A stretch of DNA of 47,580 nt from an uncultured Flavobacteriales bacterium. Lineage in GTDB: Bacteria > Bacteroidota > Bacteroidia > AKYH767-A > 2013-40CM-41-45. The DNA is taken from assembly GCA_964355035.1 (NCBI GenBank), contig CAYHCU010000002.1, positions 1 through 47,580 on the forward strand, given 5' to 3'. Below the pieces are notes generated by a model that ran no database searches, was not told the DNA's origin, and saw only the letters and a program-made list of their open reading frames with translations. The translations under genes and the position numbers were made by a program. Below are positions 31,662 to 47,580 of this stretch, piece after piece (the stretch's first letter is position 1; each line of letters begins with the position of its first letter).

Positions 31662-31668
31662 TTTTTTT

Positions 31669-31817: not shown

Positions 31818-31894
31818 TCCCGATGGGATGAACTTTGAACCCAGTCCTTCAAAGGAAAGCGCTACCTTTGCGGCGACAAAAATAGGTCAAAGCA

Positions 31895-34335: not shown

Positions 34336-34341
34336 ATTTTG

Positions 34342-34349: not shown

Positions 34350-34390
34350 CTTCCCGGCCAATAGTGCAGAACACCGCATCCTCCAACAAA

Positions 34391-36655
34391 ATGAGAAAAC
34401 ACCTCCTTTTTGTGCTTTGCTTTGTCTTTCCATTATTTGGGTATTCTCAGCTAGTAATTACTAATAACGGATCAGCAATTGCATTAGCACAAGCTATTGT
34501 TGGGAATGGAATCACTGTCAGCAATGCGACGATTGACGGCGGTGTTAATTCGACAGCAACATTTACTTATTCAGGCGGTAGTCTCGGAATACCGAATGGT
34601 GTTTTGCTGACGAGCGGACTTGCTTCTGTTGTTGCCAATCCAGGAACATATTTCAGCAGTATTCAGAATGGAAATAATTTAAGTGATCCCGATGTAGTGG
34701 CTATTAGTTCTCAGGCACGTTATGATGTATGTTTGTTGGAGTTTGATTTTATTCCCGTTTGTGATACATTACACATTACTTATGTTTTCGGTTCAGAAGA
34801 ATATCCGCAATACATCAATCAATACAATGATGTTTTTGCAATGTTTCTCACCGGACCTGATCCTGCGGGAGGGAGTTATATTTCGCACAACATAGCGACC
34901 TTAGCGAATGGAATAACACCCGTTTCTATTTTTACGGTGAATGGTGGCTGGCCAATTGGTAATGGTGCTTCTAACCCGGCTTATTATGTAGACAACTACA
35001 CAAATCCAAATGCTGACATTGCTTATGATGGTTATACTATTCCAATAACTTCTGTCGTTGCTGTTACACCTTGTGTAATGTATCACATGAAAATTGCAGT
35101 AGTAGATGCCGGAAATGGAAGATATGATTCCGGTGTTTTTATACAGGGAAATACTTTCACATGCAATGTTGCACCGAGTTCGACAATCGTAGCAACGAAT
35201 GCATGTATTAATGACGGGACGGCTGCTGTTGTAGTAAGTGGTTATGCAGGCACACCAAATTTTTCATGGTTACCGGGCGGACAAACTACATCTTCAATTA
35301 CAAATTTAATTCCCGGAAATTATTCCTGTTTGATTACCTATCCAGGTGTATGCACGACAGACAGCTTAACAATCACTATCGATGATGCGCAACCAACAGC
35401 TGTTGCCATGACAGGAACAACGATTTGCATTGGACAAACAGTTGCGTTAACAGCAAACGCTTCAGGCGGCGTATCCGGTTATAATTATTCATGGACGACA
35501 GGTGGAACGCTAGTTAGTGCAAATGTGAATCCAACTGTAAACACTATTTACACAGTAGTTGCAATCGATGCTAATGGATGCAGTTCTCCTCCTGATACTG
35601 TTTTAATCAATGTGAATCCACCGTTGACGATACAGACTACAAATGCAGTGACACTTTGCTCGCCTTCATCTTTACCGCTTTCAGTAATTGCCTCTGGTGG
35701 CAATGGCACATTTAGTTACATGTGGTCGCCGGTAATCGGCCTGAGTGATCCGACAATTTCCAATCCCGTTGCCACTCCGGCAGCAACAACTTCATACACA
35801 GTTACTGTTACAGATAATTGCGGAACACCGGCAACGACATCAGCTGTTACTGTAACCGTCGAACAACAACCGGCTCCATTGATATCTGCAAATGTATTAT
35901 CAGGATGTGAACCGCTTTGTGTAGCATTTATTGATACATCCTTGTCAAATTGTTCGACAGCCACATGGATGTTTGGTGATGGCACCAATGCAACATCATG
36001 CGGGATTACAGTACATTGTTTTAATACACCGGGAACATTTACAATTACCAATACAGTGACAAGCACAGGAGGTTGTATCGGTTCGGGTACGCAGAGTAGT
36101 TACATCACTGTTTTTCCAAAACCCAAATCGTTATTTTCTTACTGGCCTAATCCGGTATTGATTATTGATCCTGCGGTTAGCTTTACAAATAATTCAACCG
36201 ATGCAATTTCCTGGCAGTGGTCTTTTAGCAATGACGTTAACGACACATCAACACTGAAAAATCCGAAGTATGTTTATCAGGATACGGGATGTTTTCCACT
36301 TCGGCTGATTGCAAAAAGTCAGTTTGGTTGCACAGATACATTGAATTCAGAAATATGTGTGGAGATGGAATTTGAATTCTACACACCAAATACTTTTACG
36401 CCAAACGGTGATGGAATAAATGAAATCTTTTTCCCGCAAGGCACAGGCATAAGTGAAAGCGATTACGAGTTTTTAATTTTTGATCGCTGGGGAAGAGAAA
36501 TTTTCAAGACCACAAAATGGGGTGAAGGCTGGAACGGAAAAGTGAAAGACGGATCAAAGATAGCGCAGCAGGACACTTATGTTTGGTTGGTAAAGGTGTA
36601 TGATGTACAAAAGAATTTTCATCAGGTTGTGGGGAGGGTGAGTTTGGTGAGGTGA
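34391..36655 (+). CDS. Secreted protein with a choice-of-anchor-L-like N-domain, Ig/PKD-like repeats and a T9SS type B (gliding-motility-associated) C-terminal domain
   Basis: A signal peptide follows ATG 34391 (MRKHLLFVLCFVFPLFGYSQ). N-domain blocks EEYPQYINQYNDVFAMFLTGP and YDGYT. The C-terminus reads FTPNGDGINEIFFPQG...FDRWG. Confidence 0.85.
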   Translation: MRKHLLFVLCFVFPLFGYSQLVITNNGSAIALAQAIVGNGITVSNATIDGGVNSTATFTYSGGSLGIPNGVLLTSGLASVVANPGTYFSSIQNGNNLSDPDVVAISSQARYDVCLLEFDFIPVCDTLHITYVFGSEEYPQYINQYNDVFAMFLTGPDPAGGSYISHNIATLANGITPVSIFTVNGGWPIGNGASNPAYYVDNYTNPNADIAYDGYTIPITSVVAVTPCVMYHMKIAVVDAGNGRYDSGVFIQGNTFTCNVAPSSTIVATNACINDGTAAVVVSGYAGTPNFSWLPGGQTTSSITNLIPGNYSCLITYPGVCTTDSLTITIDDAQPTAVAMTGTTICIGQTVALTANASGGVSGYNYSWTTGGTLVSANVNPTVNTIYTVVAIDANGCSSPPDTVLINVNPPLTIQTTNAVTLCSPSSLPLSVIASGGNGTFSYMWSPVIGLSDPTISNPVATPAATTSYTVTVTDNCGTPATTSAVTVTVEQQPAPLISANVLSGCEPLCVAFIDTSLSNCSTATWMFGDGTNATSCGITVHCFNTPGTFTITNTVTSTGGCIGSGTQSSYITVFPKPKSLFSYWPNPVLIIDPAVSFTNNSTDAISWQWSFSNDVNDTSTLKNPKYVYQDTGCFPLRLIAKSQFGCTDTLNSEICVEMEFEFYTPNTFTPNGDGINEIFFPQGTGISESDYEFLIFDRWGREIFKTTKWGEGWNGKVKDGSKIAQQDTYVWLVKVYDVQKNFHQVVGRVSLVR

Positions 36656-36791
36656 TAATGAAATTCGTTGCATTTATAATTTTGAGATAATATATATTAC
36701 TAAAAATCAACGGTTTGCGTAGGTTTAGGAATATGAACCGGGTTTTCTCAAAAATTTTTGCAAACACATACATTTACTTAACACTATAATA

Positions 36792-36841
36792 GTAAACACA
36801 TATGTTAACATTTTGTTTGTATTGTAAATATATATGTTTAC
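36792..36841. promoter_or_regulatory. Two related imperfect palindromes that are candidate operators for the HTH gene
   Basis: GTAAACACATATGTTAAC (36792-36809) and GTAAATATATATGTTTAC (36824-36841) both fit GTAAA-N8-TT(T/A)AC. Their starts are 32 bp apart, and the second ends 30 nt upstream of ATG 36872. Confidence 0.35.
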
Positions 36842-36871
36842 GTTTGTTGTAAATTGTAAAATTCAAATGCC

Positions 36872-37333
36872 ATGCGGAATCAAAAAAAGTTACTAATAGA
36901 GCAACTTGATAAAAAATTAAAACCTTTCCAGGGAACAGAGAAAGTTATTATTCCGGACAAGGGTTGGATATACAATATTAGAGCTGCATTGAATATGAGT
37001 CTTGATCAACTAGGCAAAAAATTAAATATGACAAGACAAGGAATAAAAAAAATTGAAGAGAGAGAATTATCGGAATCAATATCATTAAAATCTTTAAAAG
37101 AAATTGCAAAAGCATTGGATATGCAATTCGTATATGGTTTTGTTCCAAAGCACAATTCTTTAGAAAATCTGGTAAATTTTAAAGCAGAAGAGCTAGCTCG
37201 GAAAATAGTATTAAGAACAAATCAAAATATGAAATTGGAAAATCAAGGAAATAGTGAGGAACAAATTAAGCGTGCAATTTTAGACCTTGCCAATGAAATA
37301 AAAAGAGAAATGAACAAATCATTATGGGATTAG
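36872..37333 (+). CDS. HTH protein of the 'mobile mystery protein A' type (putative antitoxin/regulator)
   Basis: GWIYNIRAALNMSLDQLGKKLNMTRQGIKKIEE helix-turn-helix region and a layout that matches my memory of the TIGR02612 family. It overlaps the downstream Fic gene by 10 nt. Confidence 0.8.
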   Translation: MRNQKKLLIEQLDKKLKPFQGTEKVIIPDKGWIYNIRAALNMSLDQLGKKLNMTRQGIKKIEERELSESISLKSLKEIAKALDMQFVYGFVPKHNSLENLVNFKAEELARKIVLRTNQNMKLENQGNSEEQIKRAILDLANEIKREMNKSLWD

Positions 37334-37920
37334 ATTTGGAATATGAGGAAGGTCAAACGCCTCTAAGTGAAGAAGAAAAAGAAGGTCTTTTAATTAGTTC
37401 AATTACTACGCATGGTGATTTGGATGAGCATGAACAATTGAATATAGAGGAGGCAATTAAGTGGCTACTTAATAAAAAAATAAAAAAGGACAAAATATTA
37501 ACCGAAAGTTTCATTAAAATGGTACACAAAAAAATGTTTAATAATGTTTGGTCATGGGCAGGTGAGTTTAGAAAATCAGAAAAAAATATTGGAGTTAGAT
37601 GGATAAATATCGGAGTTGATTTAAAAACATTACTCGATGACACTAATTATTGGATTGAAAATAAAACATACGCCCCTGATGAAATAGCAATAAGATTTAA
37701 GCATAGATTGGTAAACATACATTGCTTTCCAAATGGAAATGGAAGACATTCTAGAATAATGGCAGATATTATAATCGAATCCGTTTTTGGCGAAAAAATA
37801 TTTTCTTGGAATCAGTCAAACATGGTCAAAGCAGATGATACAAGAAAAGAATATATAAGGTCAATAAGAGAGGGAGACAAAGGTGACATTAAACCATTAA
37901 TCAAATTTGCCAGAAATTAA
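37324..37920 (+). CDS. Fic-domain protein of the 'mobile mystery protein B' type (putative AMPylating toxin)
   Basis: Fic motif HCFPNGNGRHSR at 37720-37755. The N-terminal YEEGQTPLSEEEKEGL block is typical of this family. Confidence 0.88.
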   Translation: MGLDLEYEEGQTPLSEEEKEGLLISSITTHGDLDEHEQLNIEEAIKWLLNKKIKKDKILTESFIKMVHKKMFNNVWSWAGEFRKSEKNIGVRWINIGVDLKTLLDDTNYWIENKTYAPDEIAIRFKHRLVNIHCFPNGNGRHSRIMADIIIESVFGEKIFSWNQSNMVKADDTRKEYIRSIREGDKGDIKPLIKFARN

Positions 37921-38030
37921 GATCGCAGCTTTAACACATCGATTGCTTTTACACCAAACAGCAATGGAATAAACGAAATTTTTCTTCTGCAAGTTACAGG
38001 CATAAGTGAAAGCGATTACGAGTTTTTATC
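37921..38030 (+). pseudogene. Remnant of a T9SS type B C-terminal domain gene (about 35 codons)
   Basis: It translates as DRSFNTSIAFTPNSNGINEIFLLQVTGISESDYEFL. Nucleotides 37996-38028 are identical over 33 nt to 36443-36475 in the intact gene upstream. Homology begins immediately after the Fic stop codon, in the same frame, and ends abruptly at about 38029. Confidence 0.7.
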
Positions 38031-38493
38031 TGTCTTTTTAAAAACGAAAACGTTTACCCAAAGCGGAATGAGACATTAATAAGAGAGAGTTTTGCGAGTT
38101 TGTACTATTCCGGTTGACATTCCACCCGGCGGGAAGTTGATCAGATGGAGAGTTTGTAAGACAATTTATATGATTTATGATTGAAATGGCAAAATTGCTG
38201 GATTTTTCGTTATACTTGTGAAAGCAAAGGGATATATACGGGTTTAGTTTTTAGAAGGGAGTGGTAAGTGAAGTGATATTAGAAACAAACAGTGGTTAAT
38301 TGCCAAGTACAATTCAGGGAATTGTTGTTCTACACGAAGGATGATCGGGAAGAAGCCGGTAAAAGTATTGATGGAATAAATGTGATGGGGTGTGATTATG
38401 TCGGAATAGAGAGAGTAAATGTAGGGTATAGGAGATATGTAAAGCAAATCGAAATACTAGGTAGCGCTATAAACTAACAATTTCACTTTATTT

Positions 38494-39159
38494 ATGAAAG
38501 ATTCAGAATTTATATTAAAACTCTTGGACATCAACCAACCCATGGCTGAAAATCCAACACGCTTTTCTACATTAGCGTTGCTTTTAACAAGTGGACGGAA
38601 ACTTTTTGGTTGCAATTTGGAAACCGGAAAATATGAATTGAATGAGGTAAACGATGAAAACTTTATTGATAAAACATATCATTCATTTCAATTTACCGCA
38701 TTAATAAATTACTTGATTTTATTAGAGCAAATTGGAAGCATTTTTATTAAAAAAAACGGCAGTAAAATAAAAGAAACTAATGGAATATTTTGCGCACTAA
38801 CATATTTTTCAAGTTTAACGGATACTGACAAAATAGAAGCTATTCAAGCTTTACGTAATTCTCTAGTTCATAAATTCGGATTAGCTACTGAAAAAAAACC
38901 TCATAAGATGCCTCCGAGGAAATTCATACTAAGTATTGCACGAAATAGTGAAATTGTAGAGCAACCTAAATCTGACTGGGACGGAACGTTTTCTGACAAA
39001 TCTGACGAGACCTCAACAACAATATTTATTGTAGATCTCATAATACTAATTGAAACTGTTTACCAAAATGTAATTCAGGAAAATAAAAACGGTAATGTAG
39101 AAATGATCTTGAAGGATGGAATGAGCGAATTAGAAAGCAGATATACTTTCATATATTAA
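38494..39159 (+). CDS. Hypothetical protein, possibly a HEPN-like RNase (RNxxxH motif)
   Basis: 221-aa ORF with ALRNSLVH (R121-x4-H126, nt 38854-38871). This fits the Rx4-6H HEPN motif with the usual polar residue after the Arg. I recognise no other motif. Confidence 0.45.
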   Translation: MKDSEFILKLLDINQPMAENPTRFSTLALLLTSGRKLFGCNLETGKYELNEVNDENFIDKTYHSFQFTALINYLILLEQIGSIFIKKNGSKIKETNGIFCALTYFSSLTDTDKIEAIQALRNSLVHKFGLATEKKPHKMPPRKFILSIARNSEIVEQPKSDWDGTFSDKSDETSTTIFIVDLIILIETVYQNVIQENKNGNVEMILKDGMSELESRYTFIY

Positions 39160-39269
39160 GATAATCAAAGCCTTTCATGCTATTCGCGTAACTTCTGCCA
39201 TAGAAGCTCGGTAAACGCATGAAATATAGATTATAAAAGAAATTGCGAATTTAACATATAAATTAAGAT

Positions 39270-39515
39270 ATGATTAAAATCAACTTTCAATTTGCCAATA
39301 ATGAAAAGCCAACAATAGCGGCAACGATTCAACAAAATATTCGTCAGCGAATACAGGATGAAAAATTGCATGAAACTACAGATGCAACTGTTAACTTGGA
39401 GTATACTGGAAACGGAACAATACTTATGGAAATGCCGATAAGTATTCCTATCAATTCAAATACGCGAATTATTGAAATATCATTTGAGGAAATAAAGGCA
39501 TTAATATCAAACTGA
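39270..39515 (+). CDS. Hypothetical small protein (81 aa)
   Basis: The ORF lies 6 nt upstream of the TPR gene on the same strand. I recognise no motif. Confidence 0.45.
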   Translation: MIKINFQFANNEKPTIAATIQQNIRQRIQDEKLHETTDATVNLEYTGNGTILMEMPISIPINSNTRIIEISFEEIKALISN

Positions 39516-39521
39516 CTCATT

Positions 39522-40508
39522 ATGGAGAATATTGACCAAAACAATACCGCAATAATTCCTGTTGGTTCAACGGACTTAGTTAGGGTTGGTAATACGCTTT
39601 CAATTACAAATAAAATATTAATTGGAGACATTGAGAAGGATTTTAACCTAGCCTTTTATTTATTGAATAACAGAGATCTACTATTAAATACTGACGACTA
39701 TTGCTTTAAGTTGGAAAATGATTCCCAATACAGGAAGTCAAACAAATTTAAATACATTTCTTCCAACGTCGATAATTATTCTAAGGCAATTACATTATTT
39801 AATTCAATACTTCAAACTAAACCCTATCATTGCCTTTCTTATGAAATGAGGGCAGTCGCTAAAATTAAATTAAAGAATTATTTAGGAGCAATCGAGGATT
39901 ATTCTAAGGCAATTGAAATTAATTCAAAATACGCTTTTGCTTTTAATGGTAGAGGAAACGCTAAGTTGCAATTAAAGGATTACTTAGGGGCAATCGAGGA
40001 TTATGACAAGGCAATTGAAATTGATTCAAAATACGCTTTTGCTTTTAATGGTAGAGGAAACGCTAAGTTGCAATTAAAGGATTACTTAGGGGCAATCGAG
40101 GATTATGACAAGGCAATTGAAATTGATTCAAATATTGCAACGGTGTTTAATAATCGAGGGAAGAGCAAGTATAATTTAAAAGATTACGCAGGGGCAATCG
40201 AGGATTATGACAAGGCAATTGAAATTTATCCAAATTTTGCCAATGCATTTTATTGTCGAGGCGTCGCCAAGGTTTACGTAAAGAATTACACTGGAGCAAT
40301 AGATGATTTTTCTAAGGTAATTGAAATTAGTCCTAAAAACGCCTTTGCATTTAATGCTCGAGGCATGACCAATGAACAACTAAAAAATTATGTTGGAGCA
40401 ATTGAGGATTATTCCAAGGCAATTGCAATTGATCCAAATTACATCACTGCGCGTAATTTTCGAGAAAATGCATTAAAGAAATTGGCGGATTTGACTGGCC
40501 ATGAATAA
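39522..40508 (+). CDS. TPR-repeat protein (about 7 TPRs) with a distinctive N-terminal module
   Basis: Seven 34-aa units of the form Y.GAIEDY.KAIEI.P....AF..RG.AK. N-terminal MENIDQNNTAIIPVGSTDLVRVGNTLSITNKIL is shared with the protein starting at 41954. Confidence 0.85.
   Translation: MENIDQNNTAIIPVGSTDLVRVGNTLSITNKILIGDIEKDFNLAFYLLNNRDLLLNTDDYCFKLENDSQYRKSNKFKYISSNVDNYSKAITLFNSILQTKPYHCLSYEMRAVAKIKLKNYLGAIEDYSKAIEINSKYAFAFNGRGNAKLQLKDYLGAIEDYDKAIEIDSKYAFAFNGRGNAKLQLKDYLGAIEDYDKAIEIDSNIATVFNNRGKSKYNLKDYAGAIEDYDKAIEIYPNFANAFYCRGVAKVYVKNYTGAIDDFSKVIEISPKNAFAFNARGMTNEQLKNYVGAIEDYSKAIAIDPNYITARNFRENALKKLADLTGHE
39888..40229 (+). repeat. 102-bp (one TPR unit) tandem repeats with a perfect 109-nt duplicated stretch
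   Basis: GCAATCGAGGATT recurs at 39888, 39990, 40092 and 40194. Nucleotides 39922-40030 are identical to 40024-40132. Confidence 0.9.
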
Positions 40509-40539
40509 GTGATAAAACAACATTCAACAATATTTGAAT

Positions 40540-41913
40540 ATGCAAACCGAAGCTGTTTTTGAAAATATAGCAGAACGAATACAACAAGAAATCAGTAAGG
40601 CACAAAAGTCAATATTTATTGCATTGGCGTGGTTTACTAATAAAAACCTTTACAATGAATTGTTGAAAAAAGCAAGAAATGGTTGCACTGTTTCTCTCAT
40701 TATTTCCAACGACAATATTAATCTTAATTCATTAATTGATTTTGAACAGTTGATTGCCGCCAAATCAAAAGTTTATAAAATAGGGAACGGCGAAACGGAA
40801 TTAATGCACAATAAATTTTGTGTTATCGATTATAGCACAGTCATTACAGGTTCTTATAACTGGAGTTACAAAGCAGAAAGTAATTTTGAGAATGTAATCA
40901 TTACAAATAATGATACAACACTAGCGGAACAATTTATTTCAGAATTTAATAATATTCGAAAACAATATTATCCAGATGATAAAAAAGAAGAAGTAATTTT
41001 TCCGTTAAACAAAATCATTAAACGTTTGGAAATTCTCAAAAATTACATTCTGCTTGAAGACGTTGATGAATTAGGCAAGGAAACAGCAAAACTTAAGGAA
41101 TACGAATTTAACTCTGACTTACTTGAAATAATTTATGATGTAAGGGAAGAAGAATTCGCGTCAGCAATAAATAAAATTCAAAAATTTATTTCTAAAAATC
41201 AACAACTTTCAATTTGGACTGACCCCGAAATAGCGGCACTTAAACTTGAGATTAAAAATCTTGAGAATCAACTCAATGCATATGGAAATGAAAAGATAGA
41301 GCTGGAGAAACTACTTTTGGAGTTTCATCATCGACATACAATCGAACTTGGAGAAGTTATTCTTGATATTCTGAAATTAAGAAAACGCAAATTCAAAGCT
41401 GATAAAATAAAATTTGAAGAAGCGGAAAATGATGAAAGACAATATCGTGAGCAAGTCAATAAAGAAAAAGATATAAAAATATTTGAATTAACAGATGATC
41501 AAAAAAAAGAGTTAAAAATAAAATTTCGGAAAGCAACTGTCTTGTGCCACCCGGACAAATTTACAAACGAGTCAATTGAAATTCAAAAGTTAGCAGAAGA
41601 AATATTCAAAGAATTAAACGAGGCGAATTCAAAAAATGATTTGTCTAGGGTTATCGAAATTTTAGCTAATCTTGAAAAGGGTATTCTCTCAACTAACAAA
41701 GGAGACATATTAGCAGACAAAGAAAAATTAAGAGCAACAATAAATAGATTGCGAATAAAGGTTGAAGTATTAGAAACCGAAATTATAGACATTAAGCAAA
41801 ATGACACTTTCAAAATAATTATTGAAATTCAGGACTGGGATCAATATTTTAAAAACACAAAGGAGAAACTGAAAAGGGAACTTGAAGAATTACGACTTGA
41901 AATTAAAATTTAA
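40540..41913 (+). CDS. Single-HKD phospholipase-D/Nuc-like domain fused to coiled coils and a J domain
   Basis: Complete HxK(x)4D(x)6GSxN motif (MHNKFCVIDYSTVITGSYN, nt 40807-40860). J-domain helix II, HPD and helix III (ELKIKFRKATVLCHPDKF...AEEIFKELNEA; HPD at 41548-41556). Heptad-rich linkers. ATG 40540 is preferred over TTG 40534. Confidence 0.8.
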   Translation: MQTEAVFENIAERIQQEISKAQKSIFIALAWFTNKNLYNELLKKARNGCTVSLIISNDNINLNSLIDFEQLIAAKSKVYKIGNGETELMHNKFCVIDYSTVITGSYNWSYKAESNFENVIITNNDTTLAEQFISEFNNIRKQYYPDDKKEEVIFPLNKIIKRLEILKNYILLEDVDELGKETAKLKEYEFNSDLLEIIYDVREEEFASAINKIQKFISKNQQLSIWTDPEIAALKLEIKNLENQLNAYGNEKIELEKLLLEFHHRHTIELGEVILDILKLRKRKFKADKIKFEEAENDERQYREQVNKEKDIKIFELTDDQKKELKIKFRKATVLCHPDKFTNESIEIQKLAEEIFKELNEANSKNDLSRVIEILANLEKGILSTNKGDILADKEKLRATINRLRIKVEVLETEIIDIKQNDTFKIIIEIQDWDQYFKNTKEKLKRELEELRLEIKI

Positions 41914-41953
41914 AGTTGCACTAAAAATAATTAAAACTGATAACAGGAACAAA

Positions 41954-42613
41954 TTGTCGGAAGATATAAAACAAAATTCAATAATACCCATTTGCTCATC
42001 TGACCTTGTTAGAGTAGGAAATTCCATTGCCTTAACTAATAAAATACTCAAAGAACATGATGAAAGGTTTATTGAGAAAACTTTTGAAACGATAGGTAAT
42101 CAAAAGTGGTGTATAAAAAATCTTTATGTTAGTAGGTACAGGAATGGCGATATAATACCACAAGTACAAGACGAGGTTCAGTGGGCATCATTAACAACTG
42201 GCGCTTGGTGTTATTACCAAAATGATCCGGATAATGGCTTTAACTATGGTAAGTTGTATAATTGGTTTGCAGTTGATGATGTTCGTGGACTTGCGCCTTT
42301 AGGTTTTCATATTCCAACAGATTTGGAATGGAAAATGTTCTATGATTATTTAGGCACCTTTGGAGGTGAATCATGGCGCTGGTTGATCCTTGATTTTTTA
42401 GGAAAGTACGGAAAAATTGCATTTCTTCCCGGAGGCTGCAGGGACAATAATGGGATGTTCTTCGAGCGGCTTAGCTTTGGTTACTGGTGGAGTTCTAAAG
42501 AAGTAAATATCTCGTTTGCTTGGAACCTAAGGCTCTCTTGTATAATTAACTCTGAAAACATGAACAGCAAAAATAAGCGTCATGGTTTTTCGGTTCGTTG
42601 CATCAAAGATTGA
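41954..42613 (+). CDS. FISUMP (Fibrobacter succinogenes major paralogous) domain protein with no signal peptide, carrying the N-terminal module shared with the TPR protein
   Basis: C-terminal blocks GKLYNWFAV, GFHIPTDLEW and GFSVRCIKD. I propose the TTG start at 41954, which gives MSEDIKQNSIIPICSSDLVRVGNSIALTNKIL and aligns with the N-terminus of the TPR protein. The ORF-track start at 41882 would overlap the upstream gene. Confidence 0.72.
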   Translation: MSEDIKQNSIIPICSSDLVRVGNSIALTNKILKEHDERFIEKTFETIGNQKWCIKNLYVSRYRNGDIIPQVQDEVQWASLTTGAWCYYQNDPDNGFNYGKLYNWFAVDDVRGLAPLGFHIPTDLEWKMFYDYLGTFGGESWRWLILDFLGKYGKIAFLPGGCRDNNGMFFERLSFGYWWSSKEVNISFAWNLRLSCIINSENMNSKNKRHGFSVRCIKD

Positions 42614-42781
42614 AAATTTCCTGTTTGATAATTACTAACTTCCATGTTTAAACAAGATGAGTTATGAATTCTATGGGACATGCTTTATGAAAGAGAATTT
42701 TACATGCGATTCTGTGAGAACTTGGTAGAGAAACTCGTTTTTATAATCCGATTAAAAATGCGAACAGAAAGATAAATTTTG

Positions 42782-43366
42782 ATGAAACTCATATATTCAA
42801 CATATACAGAACTTTTACTTAAATACAGTAATCGATCAGGGATTCCATATTTCGAATTACTTCTAACTAAGGAATGGGAGGGAAAAAGAAATCAAATCTT
42901 AAATAGAGATAACCAAACATGTTGCTATTGTGGGAAAAAATCTACAGAATACATTGAAGGCTTAGGTAATATTTGGATTTACATACAAGAGAGAATTGAA
43001 AGGGGGTATAGTTCCGATGGTGATGGGGTTGAGGAATTTGAATATGTTAATGAAGTTACTTACCACGAAGTTTCAGACAAACCCTATTATTTACATGTCC
43101 ATCACAAGTATTATATTTTAAGTTGTTTACCATGGGAATATTCTGATGATGCGCTTATGTCATTGTGTAGCTGGTGTCATTGGAAATTTCATGCTGAGAA
43201 TACCGTACCGGTTTTTGAAAATCAACAGAAAATTATTAATCTTAACTACCACCCTTGCCATAGATGTAATGGTGCCGGGTGGTTTCCACAATATAACCAT
43301 GTTCAAAGCGGAATTTGTTTCCGTTGTAGTGGCGAAAAATATGAGGAGTTAATTAAAGAAACATGA
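42782..43366 (+). CDS. HNH endonuclease with a C-terminal DnaJ-type CxxCxGxG zinc finger
   Basis: CCYCGKK...LHVHHKYY...LCSWCHWKFH forms the HNH beta-beta-alpha metal finger. The C-terminus reads CHRCNGAGW...GICFRCSGEKY. Confidence 0.72.
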   Translation: MKLIYSTYTELLLKYSNRSGIPYFELLLTKEWEGKRNQILNRDNQTCCYCGKKSTEYIEGLGNIWIYIQERIERGYSSDGDGVEEFEYVNEVTYHEVSDKPYYLHVHHKYYILSCLPWEYSDDALMSLCSWCHWKFHAENTVPVFENQQKIINLNYHPCHRCNGAGWFPQYNHVQSGICFRCSGEKYEELIKET

Positions 43367-43464
43367 ATTATATTCGAAAAAACCACCATCTAGAAAGCAA
43401 GGAAAATAATTTGAATCAAATTCTTTTTTAAATATTGAGCTGCGAAAAGAAAAATAATAGCATT

Positions 43465-44148
43465 ATGAATTTAGACAAACTCTTCGAATTATATGAACAA
43501 GAAGAAGAACGACGTTATCAAGAAGAACTTTCAGGACCAGAGCCGATGAGCGCATTGAAAAGGGAGAATATATATAAGTTAGCATACGACAATTTCAAAT
43601 TCGTGCTCGGAAAACATGTTTTTGGTAAAACAACTTTAACAGGAGAAAACCTTGATGCAATGCAAAAGTATGATATCTCAGTAGAAGAAGCATCAATAAT
43701 TTATATGTACACTAGTCATGGAATTTTTGACGATGTGAATAGTCAACTTAGATGCCGGCCGGAATATTTAGATGAAGATATTAAAGAGTATTGCAGATTA
43801 TTGGATGATGCATTAGAAAAAATGCCATCGCATAATAAATGTACAGTTTACAGAGACATTTCATGCTCAGAAGAGGAGTCGGCTTCAATTATAAATAATT
43901 ATCGATTAAGCATAGAGAAGGAAATAATAGAAAGTGCGTTTGTTTCAACACATATTGAAAATGAAAGATGGTCAGAAGCATCGGGGGTGCATATAATCAT
44001 TAAAACTAAAGAAAAAAGCAATGGAAAGGGTTTAATGGAGTTGAGTTTTAATGCAACTGAGGGAGAGGTGTTATTTAAAAAGGGAACGCCTTTTAAAGTA
44101 GATGGTGTCGATGTGGAAAACAATATGGTATATTTAACTGAAATATAA
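43465..44148 (+). CDS. ADP-ribosyltransferase of the R-S-E (C3/VIP2-like) class
   Basis: IIYMYTSHGIFDDVNSQLR (the Y-T...N..LR block), TVYRDIS (catalytic Arg), FVSTH (S-T motif), ATEGEVLF (ExE, nt 44059-44067). No signal peptide. Confidence 0.72.
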   Translation: MNLDKLFELYEQEEERRYQEELSGPEPMSALKRENIYKLAYDNFKFVLGKHVFGKTTLTGENLDAMQKYDISVEEASIIYMYTSHGIFDDVNSQLRCRPEYLDEDIKEYCRLLDDALEKMPSHNKCTVYRDISCSEEESASIINNYRLSIEKEIIESAFVSTHIENERWSEASGVHIIIKTKEKSNGKGLMELSFNATEGEVLFKKGTPFKVDGVDVENNMVYLTEI

Positions 44149-44494
44149 GTAGCCTAATCAAAATTTAGTGAGAATTGTTCCTTAGATTAGAATTCAAATG
44201 CGGCGGCTTTTTTGCCTCCGAATCGTGAGCGGTCACCTGTTTCAATTTCCAAAGCTTAATAAGCATTAGAAAACTTCATTTCAATCCGCCCCCATCAACC
44301 ATTATTCCATAATCCCCCAAAAAAACTAACTGCTTGAAATTTACCGTTATTAAATATGAACACCCCATGTTTTGAGCGGAGGGGTGGTACGTTGAAAACT
44401 ATTTCAGGGTTTTTTGATATCGATTTGTGTTTGCTCGTGTATCTTCGTTTTAGAGATTGAGAAAAATTATTCATCAATTAAAACCGGTAATAAA

Positions 44495-44818
44495 ATGGGA
44501 GAATTACTCAAAGCATATTGTGAAAAATGCGGATTTACTAAAAAGACTTGTTTGGGTTCAGGGGAAGCTGACTTTGACTACAACTGTAATTTCCCTGCGA
44601 TAGATTTAGAATACAATAAGTTTACGGTAGGAAATATTTTAAAGGAAGAAGAATCAAAAGGGAGATATAAATTTTATAATGATCCAACGATGTTCCTGGA
44701 AAAACCTGAAGGTAGGGTGCATAAGTGTAGAGATTATTCTTTGCAACGGGAAAATAATTATTGTCCGATATGCGAAAGATTTACAATGAAATTTGAAAGT
44801 GACGGGAATTATGACTAG
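44495..44818 (+). CDS. Small zinc-ribbon protein (107 aa)
   Basis: CEKCGF near the N-terminus and CPICERF near the C-terminus. The internal ATG at 44495 is preferred because the upstream part of the ORF is a low-complexity leader. Confidence 0.5.
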   Translation: MGELLKAYCEKCGFTKKTCLGSGEADFDYNCNFPAIDLEYNKFTVGNILKEEESKGRYKFYNDPTMFLEKPEGRVHKCRDYSLQRENNYCPICERFTMKFESDGNYD

Positions 44819-45011
44819 ACAGTGTCGATTTAATTGCCGGGAGGAAAGGGATTAGAGGGATTTAAAGGTTTAAGGTGTTTAATTATTTAAATGGTTTAAC
44901 GAGTTTAAAAAAGGTAATCGAAGAAGTTTAATTTTTATAAGCCGGAAAAGGGTCTATAAAATTATTGGATCATGAGTGACTTTTAGAAGTGTAATTATAA
45001 CAATAAATAGA

Positions 45012-45422
45012 ATGGAAAAGGAAAAAAAATATAGGTATTTAATTATTGCAGAAATTAGGAACAAGGGGTATCTCCTTAAATTTATGTCTGATTTAAAAGA
45101 AGCAGACAAATATGCCAAAGAAATATTTGAATTGTCCAATGAGTATTCAATTTATGAGCAGTATAAAATTGAAACTAAACTAACTTATTTCGCCTCCTAC
45201 CATGTAAATGGTACTGAAGTTTATATTGGAAACGGTTGTTGCGGGCAATCCAATGGAGTTTACACGGTTGGTACAATGAAAGTAGACATAAATAATTTTC
45301 GGTTAAATTCATTTATCAGAGAGCGGGAAAATCACTCAACAGTTTTTCCCCGTGAAGATCAATGGGATCAGGTTGACAAATTTTTAAAATTATTCCCATC
45401 GCCGAATTGGATTGCTAATTGA
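45012..45422 (+). CDS. Hypothetical protein (137 aa)
   Basis: ORF on the island strand. I recognise no motif. Confidence 0.45.
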   Translation: MEKEKKYRYLIIAEIRNKGYLLKFMSDLKEADKYAKEIFELSNEYSIYEQYKIETKLTYFASYHVNGTEVYIGNGCCGQSNGVYTVGTMKVDINNFRLNSFIRERENHSTVFPREDQWDQVDKFLKLFPSPNWIAN

Positions 45423-45454
45423 AAGATATTTAAATAAAACAAAAATATATTAAC

Positions 45455-46015
45455 ATGAACTTAAATTCTTTACATAAGCGCTTTCTTTTTTCAATTCTTT
45501 TTTCATTAATTTTCTCAAATATTTCCTTTGCTCAATTGAGCAATAAAAGTATTTGTACAGACAGAGACAAATTTTGTTTTCAATTATCATTCGAACAGAT
45601 AGATTTACCGGAGTTATTCGATAAACTTTACGTCATCAACAAGAATTTAATTTATCTCACGGGACTTAACGTTGCTTCAAATAAAACTTTATTTTCGGTT
45701 AGCAAATATGTTAATCAAAAAGATATAAGTTTTGATAGCGCTTTTTCAATGACCGTCAATTATGTGCCCAAAGTAGGAAGCTTTAATAATAGCGACTATC
45801 ATCTATTGGATTTTGGAAAATATAAAGTTAATGGAAAAGAATTACGGTATAAAATTTCGAATCCATTAGAAAATGAAATATCCATCATGTACTATTTTAT
45901 GAAAGGCAATTCATCTAAAGAGATGTACGAAATAAAAGCAACTTGTAATAGAGAAACGCAAAAGCAATGCAAACAGTTTATGGAAAATGTTGCGCTCTCG
46001 GTTGTACTGCATTGA
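45455..46015 (+). CDS. Hypothetical secreted protein
   Basis: Clear signal peptide (FLFSILFSLIFSNISFAQ). I recognise no motif. Confidence 0.55.
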   Translation: MNLNSLHKRFLFSILFSLIFSNISFAQLSNKSICTDRDKFCFQLSFEQIDLPELFDKLYVINKNLIYLTGLNVASNKTLFSVSKYVNQKDISFDSAFSMTVNYVPKVGSFNNSDYHLLDFGKYKVNGKELRYKISNPLENEISIMYYFMKGNSSKEMYEIKATCNRETQKQCKQFMENVALSVVLH

Positions 46016-46087
46016 AGCACCTTTACAGTTTGCATCTCATTGTATTCTAAAAATGTCAGCGTTAAAAAGAAACAAGGGAAATTGAAT

Positions 46088-46127
46088 AAAAACTTTGCAC
46101 GGCCCTTAAGGGCCGTGCAAAGTTTTT
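46088..46127. repeat. REP-type palindrome (copy 4) between convergent genes
   Basis: AAAAACTTTGCACGGCCCTTAAGGGCCGTGCAAAGTTTTT is a perfect 40-nt palindrome. Its core is identical to the core of the 30611-30662 copy. Confidence 0.85.
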
Positions 46128-47580
46128 TATTCTACAACAAGCTTCTTAACTTCACTTGTTTTCCCATTGGTCACTCTCACATTATAAATTCCTTTTGCAA
46201 GAGAAGTAAGATCAATCGCTTTACGGTCACCCGACCAGTCGAAATGTTTTTCTAATTCGCCGATCATATTATAAATAGAAAGTGTATAATGTTGATTTGA
46301 TTTCCCGTTGGTGTTGATGGTGACAAATCCTGCTGTTGGATTTGGGTAGATGGCAAATCCAATATAATCGATTTCTTTCACGCTTAATGTAACGGCTGAA
46401 TCATAGTAGATGATAAGATTACTGTTTACATCGAGGACAGGATTAAATCCATCACTGCAATCGGTGCAAGTTGTACCGGTTACGCAGCCCGGATTGTTTG
46501 GGTGACATTGATCAACGTATCCTGTAAAAAATTCGTAGCCAAGACTGATATTTTGATTTGCAACAAAAGATGTCATGTCGTAATCAAAATAAGGAGCAAT
46601 AGAACCGGGGCACCATCCAGAGCGGGCATAAGTCCATGTGCCACTTTGTGGTGAGCAACCGTCAGGGTTAGGATTACATGCTTGCCAATTGTGTTGTGAA
46701 AATGTATTGACCCCATTTACAAAAATTGCATGAGTTGCATCATAAAATTCTGCGGCATTGCCGGTGTTTAAAGATCCCCATCCATGACCGGTGCTCACCA
46801 ATTTTAATTTGGAAGCAATTGCATGGTCAGGAAAAGTATAATTAAAATCAGGCACAGGCTGAAGATTAGCATAGTCGCCAAAAGGATAAACATCTTTCCA
46901 AACTCTTTGCACGCTACTGTATTTATATTGAGGAGCGCCTTCTTTGAAATCAAATTTCAATTGGAAGACAAAGCCGTTATCCAACGTAGTGCAATTCGCT
47001 CTGAACGTCACCTTGCCCTGTAAGAGTGCCCTGTAATCAGCGACATTTATTTGATGAGAACATGCTACACCGAAAGGCGTAATATATCGGATAATCTCGA
47101 ACCATTGTCCATCGTGTCCTTTTGCATCGATACTTGCAACTCTGTCATAAGGACCGCAACCACCGGAAGGACAAGTAACAACCAAGGTAGCAATGATGGT
47201 ATCAAAAGCACCTACATACGAAGGAAGTATTCCCTCGCGTGTTGTCGAACTTGTATCTGTGTTCAACCAAATTCCACTGAAGGCAGAAAGATTGTTAATG
47301 TCGCTGACTGTTTGAACAACATTGATGTTCACGTTTACAACATTTGTTGCACCGAAATTGCTTACGGAAGTAATTTGAATGGTGTAAGGTCCGTAAGAAG
47401 GAGGAGTCCACAAAGCTGTGTAGTGACCGTTTCCATAAGTATCCATTGTTAAATTCTGTCCGCTGATTGAAATAGCAACACTTTGTACACTGAACAATCC
47501 GGCATAATCAATATCTACTAAAGCAGCAATTTGCATAGTAGAAAGAGTCGGCATATATACATTAGCGCCATCAACAGGAT
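46127..47580 (-). CDS. PNGase-F-like protein with a T9SS type A sorting domain. The 5' end lies beyond the window.
   Basis: The frame stays open upstream of the ORF-track Met at 47554 out to the window edge. Blocks CPSGGCGPYDR, GHGWG and W.YARSGWCPG resemble PNGase-F-type domains. The C-terminus reads IYPNPTAGFVTI...GIYNVRV. Confidence 0.75.
   Translation of the reverse strand, partial: PVDGANVYMPTLSTMQIAALVDIDYAGLFSVQSVAISISGQNLTMDTYGNGHYTALWTPPSYGPYTIQITSVSNFGATNVVNVNINVVQTVSDINNLSAFSGIWLNTDTSSTTREGILPSYVGAFDTIIATLVVTCPSGGCGPYDRVASIDAKGHDGQWFEIIRYITPFGVACSHQINVADYRALLQGKVTFRANCTTLDNGFVFQLKFDFKEGAPQYKYSSVQRVWKDVYPFGDYANLQPVPDFNYTFPDHAIASKLKLVSTGHGWGSLNTGNAAEFYDATHAIFVNGVNTFSQHNWQACNPNPDGCSPQSGTWTYARSGWCPGSIAPYFDYDMTSFVANQNISLGYEFFTGYVDQCHPNNPGCVTGTTCTDCSDGFNPVLDVNSNLIIYYDSAVTLSVKEIDYIGFAIYPNPTAGFVTINTNGKSNQHYTLSIYNMIGELEKHFDWSGDRKAIDLTSLAKGIYNVRVTNGKTSEVKKLVVE

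Follow-up and report, generated by a model that had tools for sequence, protein, structure and literature searches.

Specialised J-protein/client systems, such as HscB-HscA-IscU and DjlC-HscC, combine a J domain, whose invariant HPD motif implies the recruitment of an Hsp70, with a recognition motif in the client. Chaperone machinery can also join immune sensing, as occurs in the DnaJ-mediated phage sensing by bNACHT25 (PMC12169576). In turn, STAND, Avs and NLR-like systems and the ternary conflict systems (Kaur et al. 2020, PMC7159879; PMC13581612) join sensors containing TPR, LRR, WD40 or C-type-lectin-like FGS/FISUMP domains to nuclease effectors, and use effector-associated domains as short common N-terminal modules linking separate polypeptides. 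The CoCoNuT type IV restriction systems (PMC11090510) contain coiled coils, Hsp70-like domains and nucleases, including PLD.

The window analysed here, the whole stretch of 47,580 nt, carries a group of three genes (g05-g06-g07) with features of all of them. Its PLD nuclease-J domain protein (g06) has the invariant HPD motif, and its partners (g05 and g07) carry a short conserved N-terminal peptide, or tag, resembling a client recognition motif or an effector-associated domain, followed by sensor-type domains. The module departs from the HscB, DjlC and bNACHT25 systems in that one protein joins the J domain and a nuclease, there is no linked Hsp70 gene, the binding repeats of the partners are hyper-variable and a NACHT or STAND NTPase is missing. 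With respect to the STAND, Avs and ternary systems, the NTPase core is absent, sensor and effector are encoded by separate genes, and the predicted energy source would be the host Hsp70, engaged via the J domain. The resemblance to CoCoNuT is thematic only, the module lacking McrB/McrC homologues and having a J domain instead of an Hsp70-like domain.

In PADLOC, the PLD domain of g06 gives weak matches to DISARM DrmC (36.5 bits) and Mokosh MkoB (14.9 bits), and the module differs from both systems in the absence of accompanying helicase or methylase genes. The genes DrmA, DrmB, DrmD, DrmE and MkoA are all absent, and the NCBIfam DrmC score of g06 is 18.6 against a cut-off of 133.

The island and its flanks

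The module belongs to an island of twelve consecutive plus-strand ORFs (g01 to g12, 36872-46015) located between two T9SS cargo genes:

34364-36655: CHU_C-type T9SS protein gene, left flank
46127-47554, minus strand: Por_Secre_tail PNGase-like protein gene, right flank

The initial annotation had described this arrangement, which is confirmed here, and had judged by eye that the island is more AT-rich than its flanks. The computed values agree, with a GC content of 0.319 in the island versus 0.386 in the remaining window, a per-gene GC of 0.321+/-0.022 versus 0.390+/-0.029 outside (Mann-Whitney p=6e-6) and a GC3 of 0.275 for island genes versus 0.345. Since values of 0.33-0.37 are also reached at 9-16.5 kb of the window, the contrast is sharpest against the immediate flanks. 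As previously noted, there is no integrase, transposase or recombinase within the island, and profile matches bear out the HTH+Fic, TPR, PLD+J, FISUMP, HNH and ADP-ribosyltransferase domains. Close relatives without the island were sought and none was found.

The island is probably a mosaic of AT-rich accessory units, at least five in number and each acquired independently, lying between native T9SS cargo genes, with g05-g07 as a predicted conflict module. The units are g01-g02; g03; g05-g06-g07, with g04 attached provisionally; g08; and g09; g10-g12 are left without assignment. The third unit is the sole multi-gene system of the island.

The g01-g02 pair

36872-37333, plus strand: g01, HTH protein, mobile mystery protein A (TIGR02612, HTH_3)
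37324-37920, plus strand: g02, Fic protein, mobile mystery protein B (TIGR02613, Pfam Fic, PADLOC PDC-S04)
36381-36475, plus strand: 95-nt direct repeat, copy 1, within the CHU_C-domain part of the left-flank T9SS gene, whose 3' end is intact
37934-38028, plus strand: 95-nt direct repeat, copy 2, in a degraded, out-of-context CHU_C fragment just past the g02 Fic stop

This pair had been included in a gene order said to match no recognised defence or toxin system, an opinion that has to be revised for g01-g02, because both proteins score above the curated NCBIfam cut-offs for mobile mystery proteins A (g01, 142.1 bits; cut-off 122.6) and B (g02, 252.2 bits; cut-off 124.4). PADLOC candidate PDC-S04 also matches g02, at 70 bits. 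As in the described family, the genes are adjacent, overlap (by 10 nt), follow the A-then-B order and encode an HTH plus a Fic protein, and no feature sets them apart from it. A Bacteroidetes-type -7 box, TACGTTTG, is located 33 nt upstream of g01. The Fic motif of g02 reads HCFPNGNGRHSR, in which Asn occupies the position of the Asp or Glu found in canonical AMPylating Fic proteins.

It had also been stated that the island has no att duplication, which is inaccurate, as the 95-nt repeat copies (84% identical, blastn E=1e-24; repeat family D11) bracket g01-g02. The second copy encodes a CHU_C fragment of 33 aa, 73% identical to the CHU_C of the neighbouring gene. The pair probably arrived, or was rearranged, through recombination at the 3' end of the left-flank gene, where CHU_C is encoded.

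The nuclease-J protein and its tagged partners

39270-39515, plus strand: g04, 81-aa ORF, 6 nt upstream of g05
39522-40508, plus strand: g05, tagged partner 1, with TPR repeats after the tag (tag residues 7-35, nt 39540-39626)
40540-41913, plus strand: g06, PLD(HKD) nuclease, helical/coiled-coil region, J domain and coiled coil
41954-42613, plus strand: g07, tagged partner 2, with a FISUMP (C-type-lectin-like) domain after the tag (tag nt 41972-42055)

In g06, nt 40807 marks the HKD His, and nt 41548-41556 encode HPD. The Pfam scores of the protein are 86.8 bits for PLDc_2 and 24.3 bits for DnaJ, the latter below the gathering cut-off of 27.8; the J domain is nevertheless assigned because the HPD motif is invariant, the AF2 model (pLDDT 90) shows the corresponding helices and family members pass the DnaJ cut-off (32.1 bits). 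Among 149 family members, each of the two motifs, HxK..D..GSxNW and HPD, is retained in at least 95%. PDB matches of the PLD domain are Zucchini, Nuc and NucT, with a best sequence E=4e-9 and Foldseek TM scores of 0.68-0.78, normalised to the target. Like these single-HKD nucleases (Zucchini being MitoPLD), g06 carries the HxK(x)4D...GSxNW motif, in its N-terminal 145 residues, and it differs from the solved enzymes in an extension of 310 residues, comprising helical, J-domain and coiled-coil parts, and in having a dedicated tagged partner gene.

The family comprises 316 clusters (50% identity) at E<1e-30, mainly full length. Among the variants, an ExoI-like nuclease takes the place of the PLD before the same J module (P0247), an RNase_T is added to PLD-J (P0246), the PLD is fused straight to WG repeats (P0215), or PLD-J continues into a partner whose tag has diverged (P0181). 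Moreover, the J module appears alone, without PLD or tagged partner, in Salmonella and Enterobacter records annotated as 'DnaJ family chaperone', so the ancestry of the J part may lie outside defence.

The initial annotation had listed g05, g06 and g07 among the members of the island; its domains stand, although the common tag of g05 and g07 and their adjacency to PLD-J were missed. The N-termini of both partners are alike (blastp E=1e-8) and contain a tag of about 30 residues, with the consensus NNxSLIPIGSTxLVRVGNSIxITNKIL, which is probably beta-strand rich and has no Pfam family match. The tag HMM recognises g05 at E=2.7e-24 and g07 at E=1.5e-23, whereas the rest of each protein corresponds to TPR_1 (E=1e-48) and Fib_succ_major (110 bits), respectively. 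The likely start of g07 is the TTG at 41954, because the gene call in the sister sample L002 agrees and the tag then begins at residue 7, like in all the other members. The g05 and g07 tags differ at synonymous sites, which indicates that selection acts on the peptide.

The adjacency of tag and PLD-J is strict in both directions. Starting from g06, a tagged gene adjoins PLD-J in 43 of 57 homologue loci from Bacteroidota genomes, with a gap of at most 60 nt in 37 of these 43 and frequent overlap with the stop or start codon of the neighbour. At four further PLD-J loci, the neighbouring TPR gene bears a tag that has diverged, and at three loci with adequate flanks (L049, L064 and L065) the tag HMM found no tagged neighbour. 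Reciprocally, a strict tag pattern scanned against all GTDB representative genomes gave 12 sites, nine beside an intact PLD-J, one beside a PLD-J remnant and two, unreadable, at a locus edge; none of the sites was a counter-example to the adjacency. No homologue of g04 is present at other PLD-J module loci.

In the 50 tagged ORFs recovered with the HMM, the tag is always near residue 7, and what follows is exchanged like a cassette. The partner C-termini are TPR (17), LRR (12), WD40 (5), FISUMP (4), PQQ (2), WG (1) or without assigned domain (7), and this diversity persists when PLD-J is at least 75% identical to g06 (LRR 5, WD40 4, TPR 3, PQQ 2, FISUMP 1, unassigned 2). In two Riemerella genomes, PLD-J and both sides of the locus are 95-97% identical, but one genome has a TPR partner and the other an LRR partner, and homology is lost about 27 nt into the tag. 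In one case, the partner gene is disrupted by an IS.

Proposed function of the module

The genes g05-g06-g07 represent a widespread and apparently undescribed Bacteroidota module of two or three genes, no description having been found in PADLOC 2.0 or in the literature searched. We infer a sensor plus nuclease conflict system using the host Hsp70, with tag docking, Hsp70 dependence, a nucleic-acid target and a defence role as predicted traits. In this reading, g05 and g07 are alternative partners, each consisting of the tag and a ligand-binding domain (TPR or FISUMP here; LRR, WD40, PQQ propeller or WG repeats at other loci). The tag would dock the partner to the non-catalytic part of g06, and the binding domain would then recognise a foreign molecule, probably from a phage or mobile element. 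The J domain would bring in host DnaK/Hsp70, and the remodelling of the complex would turn the g06 nuclease on or off.

It could be argued instead that the module has a specialised role in proteostasis or housekeeping and is not an immune system. In that case, g06 would be a dedicated J protein passing its clients, the tagged repeat proteins, on to DnaK to be folded or assembled, in the way that IscU reaches HscA through HscB, and the PLD domain would process RNA or DNA or bind membrane lipids. In favour of this view, Hsp70s bind short hydrophobic peptides like the tag, the lone J module of enterobacteria is annotated as a chaperone, many of the genes around the module have housekeeping functions (enolase, peptidase M3, tRNA synthetase) and the solved structure closest to the PLD, Zucchini, belongs to a nuclease that processes RNA. 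However, the distribution is patchy, with identities of up to 85% across different Bacteroidota families, while a native flank gene reaches at most 75% in the closest relatives; module GC is low relative to the host; binding domains are exchanged between near-identical loci; the nuclease domain is swappable; a partner gene is IS-disrupted; and two copies lie on IMG/VR contigs, one of them beside an integrase. These are traits of accessory or conflict genes, and we consider the proteostasis role rather unlikely. The neighbours of the module vary, and TIR, PIN, R-M, MADS, PDC and retron-RT genes are among them.

The tag could also be an export or trafficking signal, with g05 and g07 as secreted or surface proteins and g06 as their pilot or chaperone. 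In Bacteroidota, proteins with FISUMP or LRR domains usually lie outside the cytoplasm, and secreted proteins often contain FISUMP, LRR or PQQ domains; moreover, the tag is fixed at the extreme N-terminus and the island lies between T9SS cargo genes. This reading is nonetheless very improbable, taking into account that the tag has, by eye, no hydrophobic h-region or lipobox, that a T9SS C-terminal domain is absent from the listed Pfam matches of the scanned tagged proteins, that the nuclease active site is intact in the g06 family, and that cytoplasmic TPR and WD40 partners are frequent.

The remaining genes and the composition of the island

38494-39159, plus strand: g03, 221-aa orphan with an invariant RxxxxH motif
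42782-43366, plus strand: g08, stand-alone HNH nuclease with zinc-finger motifs CxxC and CxxCxGxG (PHROG HNH families)
43465-44148, plus strand: g09, stand-alone ADP-ribosyltransferase of the C3/VIP2 exoenzyme type (ADPrib_exo_Tox)
44495-44818, plus strand: g10, 107-aa protein with CxxC...CxxC
44976-45422, plus strand: g11, 136-148-aa protein without assigned family
45455-46015, plus strand: g12, 186-aa protein without assigned family, with a signal-peptide-like N-terminus by eye
46088-46127, no strand: REP palindrome, perfect (20+20 nt), between g12 and the convergent PNGase gene

The first of these genes, g03, had been called HEPN-like. Its R121 and H126 are invariant across 56 clusters of homologues and its AF2 model reaches a pLDDT of 94, yet the family has no match in Pfam, PADLOC, NCBIfam, PHROGs or a PDB sequence search, and Foldseek gives no significant match, HepT HEPN toxins ranking top at E about 2. 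A HEPN fold is possible and is not established. The nuclease g08 matches PHROG HNH families at E=8.6e-8 and has about 100 clusters of homologues in diverse contexts, and g09 scores 56 bits against ADPrib_exo_Tox (cut-off 23.4), with only 17 clusters and varying genes downstream. No family match was found for g10 in Pfam, PADLOC, NCBIfam or PHROGs.

The initial annotation had left two options for the whole island, a novel multi-gene system or an accumulation of independent cassettes. The second is favoured, since the relatives of g03, g08 and g09 are scattered in unrelated contexts, none of them beside a homologue of any other island gene, and g01-g02 is already named; the first survives only for the compact g05-g06-g07 module. 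A single conflict system in which all twelve genes work together is hardly credible. The genes share a strand and a uniformly AT-rich composition, convincing terminators are not seen inside the island, where all twelve may be co-transcribed, and at an unrelated locus (L077) HNH, PLDc_2 and ART genes are consecutive beside Eco57I and GmrSD. Against this, no homologues of g01-g04 or g08-g12 occur near the 57 g06 homologues, the loci of g03, g06, g08 and g09 homologues having no other island gene in common; g01-g02 is separately bracketed; the HNH of L077 does not belong to the g08 homologues, and the J module is missing from the PLD of that locus; and g08 is polymorphic and inactivated in sister samples (H109Y in L001, C116* in L002), where the other island genes have no disabling change.

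As a separate observation, the related PLD of L077 shows a marginal match to an Hsp70 substrate-binding domain.

Finally, the REP palindrome had been taken as a marker of the right edge of the island, which is wrong. A repeat search of the window located the same REP on both sides of a Y1_Tnp/RAYT-like gene (29996-30039 and 30614-30657), with a degenerate copy at 34298-34341, and the palindrome at 46088-46127 is a member of this window-wide family linked to the Y1_Tnp gene.

Gene content and composition of the island

The island at 36656-46030 contains twelve consecutive + strand genes, g01 to g12, lying between two T9SS cargo genes, as the initial annotation had described. Its AT-richness, until now a judgement by eye, is borne out by calculation: GC content is 0.319 in the island and 0.386 in the remainder of the window, the corresponding per-gene values are 0.321 and 0.390 (Mann-Whitney p=6e-6), and GC3 is 0.275 against 0.345. 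The domains proposed at that stage were recovered by profile searches in the case of HTH, Fic, TPR, PLDc_2 with J, FISUMP, ADPrib_exo_Tox and HNH, but not in that of HEPN for g03.

Genes of the island and its flanks (libraries or searches giving the match in brackets)

34364-36655, +, left flank, PKD/CHU_C T9SS cargo protein
36872-37333, +, g01, HTH protein, mobile mystery protein A (Pfam, NCBIfam)
37324-37920, +, g02, Fic protein, mobile mystery protein B (Pfam, NCBIfam, PADLOC)
38494-39159, +, g03, protein with R121 and H126 invariant in homologues
39270-39515, +, g04, ORF without family match
39522-40508, +, g05, tag and TPR (profile search)
40540-41913, +, g06, PLDc_2 and J domain (profile search)
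41954-42613, +, g07, tag and FISUMP (profile search)
42782-43366, +, g08, HNH protein (PHROG HNH families)
43465-44148, +, g09, ADPrib_exo_Tox (Pfam)
44495-44818, +, g10, no family match
44976-45422, +, g11, no family match
45455-46015, +, g12, no family match
46127-47554, minus, right flank, PNGase-F-like T9SS cargo protein with Por_Secre_tail (832 aa in the longer contig)

Searches of Pfam, NCBIfam, PADLOC and PHROGs returned no match for g03, g04 and g10, nor did Pfam, PADLOC and PHROGs for g11 and g12. The same 20 kb is present in two further metagenomic assemblies, ERZ4201063 and ERZ4201064, with 99.95% identity. It had been stated that the region holds neither an integrase or recombinase nor an att duplication; the first part stands, no recombinase gene being found at 36656-46030, but a direct repeat of 95 nt does exist, and this sole repeat brackets g01-g02 alone, leaving the island as a whole without these hallmarks of an integrative element. 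The nearest Y1_Tnp gene is 6 kb away and REP-associated. Scans for sigma-70 promoters and terminators gave the same counts as shuffled sequence, and Rfam and tRNA scans detected only a tRNA-Ser (33151-33238), outside the island. An empty site, that is, a relative devoid of the island, was not found through the relatives of the flanking genes in GTDB and metagenomes. Orthologues of the left-flank CHU_C gene in GTDB (60-75% identity) have lost synteny, the contig carrying the best relative of the right-flank PNGase gene (metagenomes, 86% identity) stops 100 nt beyond the stop codon, and the second-best relative (63% identity) has unrelated neighbours.

A mosaic of independent cassettes

Two readings had been offered for these genes, a single novel 12-gene conflict system or an accumulation of independent toxin cassettes. 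Co-occurrence was tested from four entry points, the homologue loci of g06, g09, g08 and g03. GTDB representative genomes contain 57 g06 homologues (48-85% identity), and when all the island proteins were compared with these loci by tblastn, the neighbours matched g05 and g07 only; g01-g04 and g08-g12 have no counterpart beside any of them. The g09 family is rare (17 clusters) and is found in settings as different as a fatty-acid operon and an Eco57I-GmrSD-HNH-PLDc_2 island, with non-homologous genes downstream. Members of the g08 family (about 100 clusters, proteins of roughly 190 aa) are located after infB in one lineage and within a restriction-rich variable region in another, and the g03 family (56 clusters) adds three more unrelated contexts. 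No second island gene was found at the g09, g08 or g03 homologue loci, and GTDB genomes yielded no close relatives of g09 and g03. Since no homologue locus has co-occurring island genes beyond those resembling g05 and g07, the single 12-gene system is unsupported, and the unrelated contexts of the g03, g08 and g09 homologues speak for the accumulation of cassettes. The island is a mosaic and, taken as a whole, nothing out of the ordinary: a small hotspot of accessory or defence type, filled with AT-rich cassettes unrelated to one another.

The HTH-Fic pair

The product of g01 scores 142.1 bits against NCBIfam TIGR02612 (mobile mystery protein A, curated cut-off 122.6) and that of g02 252.2 bits against TIGR02613 (mobile mystery protein B, cut-off 124.4); the two genes are adjacent in A-then-B order with a 10-nt overlap, and g02 also matches the PADLOC candidate PDC-S04. 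The canonical motif of Fic AMP-transferases is HxFx(D/E)GNGRxxR, while that of g02 reads HCFPNGNGRHSR, with Asn in the Asp/Glu position (Pfam Fic, 41 bits). The pair belongs to this already named HTH-Fic family and is plausibly toxin-antitoxin-like.

The two copies of the 95-nt repeat (36381-36475 and 37934-38028) are 84% identical. The second is a degraded 33-codon duplicate of the 3' end of the CHU_C gene, located straight after the Fic stop codon, and therefore the g01-g02 cassette is bracketed on its own. Such an arrangement points to an insertion or recombination of its own within the conserved CHU_C-coding segment. A Logan contig (L003, 36446-38025) was considered as an excised g01-g02 circle and discarded, because its ends fall on the 30 nt over which the repeat is exact; it is most simply explained as a k-mer graph break. 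An exact 19-nt match (38050-38068 and 7678-7696, E=5e-4 in that search) joins the pseudogene-like gap after g02 to the gene of a 1739-aa PKD-repeat protein, and could represent a further small remnant of a T9SS cargo gene.

The PLD-J protein

The product of g06, named PLD-J together with its homologues, begins with a single-HKD PLD domain (residues 1-145), followed by a helical region, a long coiled coil, a J domain of the type found in Hsp70 co-chaperones (residues ~319-379) and a C-terminal coiled coil (AF2 pLDDT 90). Its catalytic motif, MHNKFCVID...GSYNW, fits HxK(x)4D(x)6GSxN. In the J domain, the sequence CHPDK (residues 336-340) places HPD between helices II and III (AF2 helices 319-336, 346-364 and 368-379); the Pfam DnaJ score is 24.3 bits, with a gathering threshold of 27.8, and family members P0148 and P0139 reach 32.1 and 27.2. 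Both HxK...D...GSxNW and the HPD tripeptide are kept in at least 95% of 149 family members, and therefore the two predicted activities are under selection. The closest solved relatives of the PLD domain are Zucchini/MitoPLD, Nuc and NucT (phmmer E=4e-9), and Foldseek gives TMt values of 0.78 (1byr), 0.71 (6ehi) and 0.68 (4ggj) with E ~1e-6; by analogy with them, g06 is predicted to be a nuclease rather than a lipase.

The family comprises at least 316 clusters (50% identity) at E<1e-30, mostly of 445-475 aa, and includes natural variants that reinforce the logic of the module. Thus, P0247 carries an RNase_T/ExoI-like nuclease in place of the PLD domain before the same helical, J and coiled-coil module, P0246 has an RNase_T domain in front of PLD-J, P0215 is a PLD domain fused straight to WG repeats, and in P0181 PLD-J continues into a protein with a diverged tag.

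Two more distant arrangements were also observed. In a Salmonella plasmid record (NZ_CP149222, L120 6001-7176) and an Enterobacter locus (L121 6001-7170), a 391-aa protein annotated as 'DnaJ family molecular chaperone' shares homology with g06 over residues 156-457 only (30-35% identity); it has a near-identical opening helix, MNKIIKRLEIIK, but neither a PLD domain nor a tagged neighbour. With regard to a link to DjlB/DjlC, the Salmonella homologue had no DNA-level match in E. coli genomes. In a Logan contig (SRR27674710, L077 5938-6918), a PLD domain 42% identical to that of g06 is fused not to the J module but to a marginal match to the Hsp70 substrate-binding domain (20.6 bits), the gene being flanked by an HNH gene and by one for a g09-type ADP-ribosyltransferase in an Eco57I/GmrSD defence island.

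Tagged partners of PLD-J

An all-against-all comparison of the island proteins revealed that g05 and g07, otherwise a TPR and a FISUMP protein, are alike over their first ~33 residues (E=1e-8). The HMM of this tag, with the consensus NNxSLIPIGSTxLVRVGNSIxITNKILxE, picks out 50 ORFs across the window and the 57 loci, and in every one of them the motif starts at about residue 7. A tagged gene directly adjoins PLD-J in 43 of the 57 loci, mostly upstream and sometimes downstream, and six loci have two tagged genes, as occurs in the window. In 37 loci no more than 60 nt separate the two genes, and overlap with the neighbour's stop or start codon is frequent. In four more loci the adjacent genes encode TPR proteins whose tag has diverged further; of the other ten, four have truncated PLD-J copies and three offer too little flanking sequence for a decision, so that the apparent true exceptions are only L049, L064 and L065.

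The reciprocal scan was carried out on 185,579 GTDB representative genomes with a strict degenerate DNA pattern for the tag, chosen because the tag alignment is too variable for an alignment-based locus search. It gave 12 sites, nine beside an intact PLD-J gene, one beside a PLD-J remnant and two at the edge of the retrieved DNA, and no counter-example, a tag away from PLD-J, among them. The DNA encoding the tags of g05 and g07 shows many synonymous differences, which argues for selection on the peptide and not for recent gene conversion.

The C-termini of the tagged partners correspond to TPR (17), LRR (12), WD40 (5), FISUMP (4), PQQ propeller (2) and WG (1) proteins, with seven unidentified; all those recognised are ligand- or protein-binding scaffolds. 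Even PLD-J proteins at least 75% identical to g06 are accompanied by LRR (5), WD40 (4), TPR (3), PQQ (2), FISUMP (1) or unidentified (2) partners, and the partner class is uncoupled from the PLD-J phylogeny. In two Riemerella anatipestifer-type genomes, with 95-97% identity over both flanks and PLD-J, the partner is tag-TPR in one and tag-LRR in the other, homology ending ~27 nt into the tag; this difference is a cassette exchange. In R. anatipestifer RCAD0997 (CP081184, L039 8077-9991) the tag-LRR gene is interrupted by an IS, whose transposase gene (8461-9141) runs in the opposite orientation, and in the related strain NJ-1 (L027) this position is occupied by an intact tag-TPR partner.

Within g05, five tandem units of 102 nt (34 codons) with 71-85% nucleotide identity were observed at 39764-40464, and this TPR array looks to have been expanded recently by unit duplication. 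FISUMP is a known DGR target; as for a DGR acting on g07, no reverse transcriptase was found among the island genes scanned.

Distribution and comparison with known systems

The module is present in dozens of genera of Bacteroidota, and its carriers include the fish pathogen Flavobacterium psychrophilum and the poultry pathogen Riemerella anatipestifer. PLD-J reaches up to 85% identity across families (Chitinophagaceae, Weeksellaceae, Cyclobacteriaceae, Marinifilaceae and others), whereas the native CHU_C flank gene does not exceed 75% in the closest relatives, which implies horizontal transfer. Genes outside the module are not conserved across PLD-J loci. The two nearest on each side are mixed, some being housekeeping genes (enolase, peptidase M3), and conflict genes among the neighbours include TIR, PIN, R-M methylases and nucleases, MADS, PDC-S01/S32 and retron-type RTs. 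Two full-length PLD-J copies were located on IMG/VR contigs, one with an LRR partner and the other, adjoining a tyrosine-integrase-like gene, with a WG partner.

Full-text literature searches turned up no account of a fused PLD-J protein accompanied by tagged partners, nor do the PADLOC 2.0 libraries at hand hold a model for it. DISARM requires DrmC together with DrmA and DrmB (helicase, DUF1998) and DrmD/E or a methylase; the PLD domain of the module gives weak matches to DrmC models, and other Drm genes are absent from the island and the 57 loci. The match of this domain to Mokosh is also weak; with the helicase and methylase partners missing, the module is neither DISARM nor Mokosh. Polymorphic toxins combine a conserved N-terminal trafficking region, a variable toxin C-terminus and an adjacent immunity gene, whereas the variable C-termini of the module are binding repeats (TPR, LRR, WD40, PQQ, WG, FISUMP) instead of toxins, so that it is no locus of this kind, and no Rhs, T6SS or secretion domain was detected in the tagged partners scanned. 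Unlike STAND/NLR-like (Avs) sensors, built around a central STAND NTPase, the module lacks an NTPase, none being found in g05, g06, g07 or 48 tagged partners. Its sensor-domain repertoire resembles that of NLR-like and ternary conflict systems (PMC7159879), its combination of coiled coils, nucleases and Hsp70-related parts that of CoCoNuTs (PMC11090510), and the idea that chaperone machinery takes part in sensing is one that it has in common with bNACHT25 (PMC12169576).

Possible function of the module

The existence of a module formed by putative tagged sensors and the predicted PLD-J nuclease is well supported: the fusion has its catalytic and HPD motifs intact and is obligately adjoined by one or more proteins with the common N-terminal peptide and exchangeable binding domains. 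For its function we rely wholly on inference. The tag would dock the partner onto a non-catalytic part of g06, the best candidate being the highly conserved helix NKIIKRLEILK (residues ~156-175), which is also kept in the PLD-less enterobacterial homologues. The repeat domain of the partner could then bind a trigger molecule, and the J domain would recruit the housekeeping DnaK, whose ATP-driven remodelling of the complex might license or restrain the nuclease.

A role in conflict or defence is slightly favoured, because the module is distributed as an accessory element, its sensor-like partners diversify and its nuclease can be swapped. Its chief competitor is a housekeeping role as a specialised J-protein/client circuit like that of HscB and IscU. 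A more specific proposal within the defence reading, which we advance only tentatively and consider less likely than not, is that the module represents an unrecognised immune class of Bacteroidota, in which interchangeable tag-docked recognition proteins (TPR, LRR, WD40, lectin-like) would act on a nuclease gated by J-recruited host Hsp70; it would then be an NTPase-free counterpart of NLR/STAND sensors, with a housekeeping chaperone borrowed as ATPase switch. The module is the valuable part of the island, its architecture being clean and testable. If it serves in defence, it would provide a new immunity logic, with a J domain coupling sensing to a nuclease via host Hsp70, and a natural plug-and-play docking tag for sensor-domain swaps; if it is not immune, a nuclease-J fusion with dedicated tagged clients would still be a new specialised Hsp70 circuit.

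Other genes of the island

With regard to its HEPN-like label, g03 is at most a candidate: R121 and H126 are invariant in 45 homologue sequences and fit the Rx4-6H motif of HEPN proteins, but Pfam, PADLOC, NCBIfam, PHROG and PDB sequences gave no match, and two Foldseek libraries nothing significant. With the AF2 model (pLDDT 94), HepT toxins rank first and non-significantly (E=2-3, probability 0.15), and BFVD was likewise without a significant hit. In a Hanamia-like MAG (L087/L088, 800-6291), a g03 homologue lies within seven same-strand unknown genes (195-272 aa), including that of an AbiJ_NTD4 protein, with a group II intron RT nearby, an orphan islet built like the island.

The product of g08, a solitary HNH nuclease, matches phrog_119 across residues 103-147 (E=8.6e-8) and four more HNH PHROGs; its core, HVHHK...LCSWCHWKFH, fits the H-H...CxxC-H motif, and DnaJ-type CxxCxGxG zinc knuckles are also present. 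Over the shared 20 kb, the sister-sample contigs L001 and L002 differ from the window at 8 and 11 positions, with one SNP of each within g08 (window 43103, 43126), H109Y in the HVHH catalytic motif in L001 and C116-to-stop in L002. These changes suggest that g08, a gene with the potential to do harm, is under relaxed or negative selection and is being inactivated in the population. As for g09 (Pfam ADPrib_exo_Tox, 56 bits, cut-off 23.4), with the triad R / STH / EGE read by eye, it is a solitary exoenzyme-type ADP-ribosyltransferase with no conserved neighbour.

Repeats and variable sites in the window

A REP-like perfect palindrome, TTTGCACGGCCCTTAAGGGCCGTGCAAA, occurs at 29996-30039, 30614-30657, 34298-34341 and 46088-46127. 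The last copy had been taken as the marker of the right edge of the island, but the same REP at the Y1_Tnp gene and at 34298-34341 identifies it as a generic intergenic element. Copies flank both sides of this gene (30174-30605, 143 aa, IS200/RAYT-like), an arrangement that resembles a REP/RAYT system, here within a genome of the Bacteroidota.

A second intergenic repeat family, ATTTCGGATTTCGGAATGCGGATTTCGG... followed by a ~57-nt unit, was observed at 21563-21593, 26586-26669, 26990-27060 and 32842-33046. The repeats stand in tandem immediately upstream of tRNA-Ser (33151-33238) as well as at three further intergenic locations, and both orientations are represented. Between a Dus gene and a Rce1-like gene, the stretch 31665-31858 is densely filled with GTTCAAAG units in inverted and direct repetition. 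Finally, in the PNGase/T9SS gene, seven SNPs common to both sister assemblies against the window are grouped within 70 nt (46427-46496). This cluster is either a short tract of recombination or a hypervariable patch, the rest of the 20 kb being almost identical.
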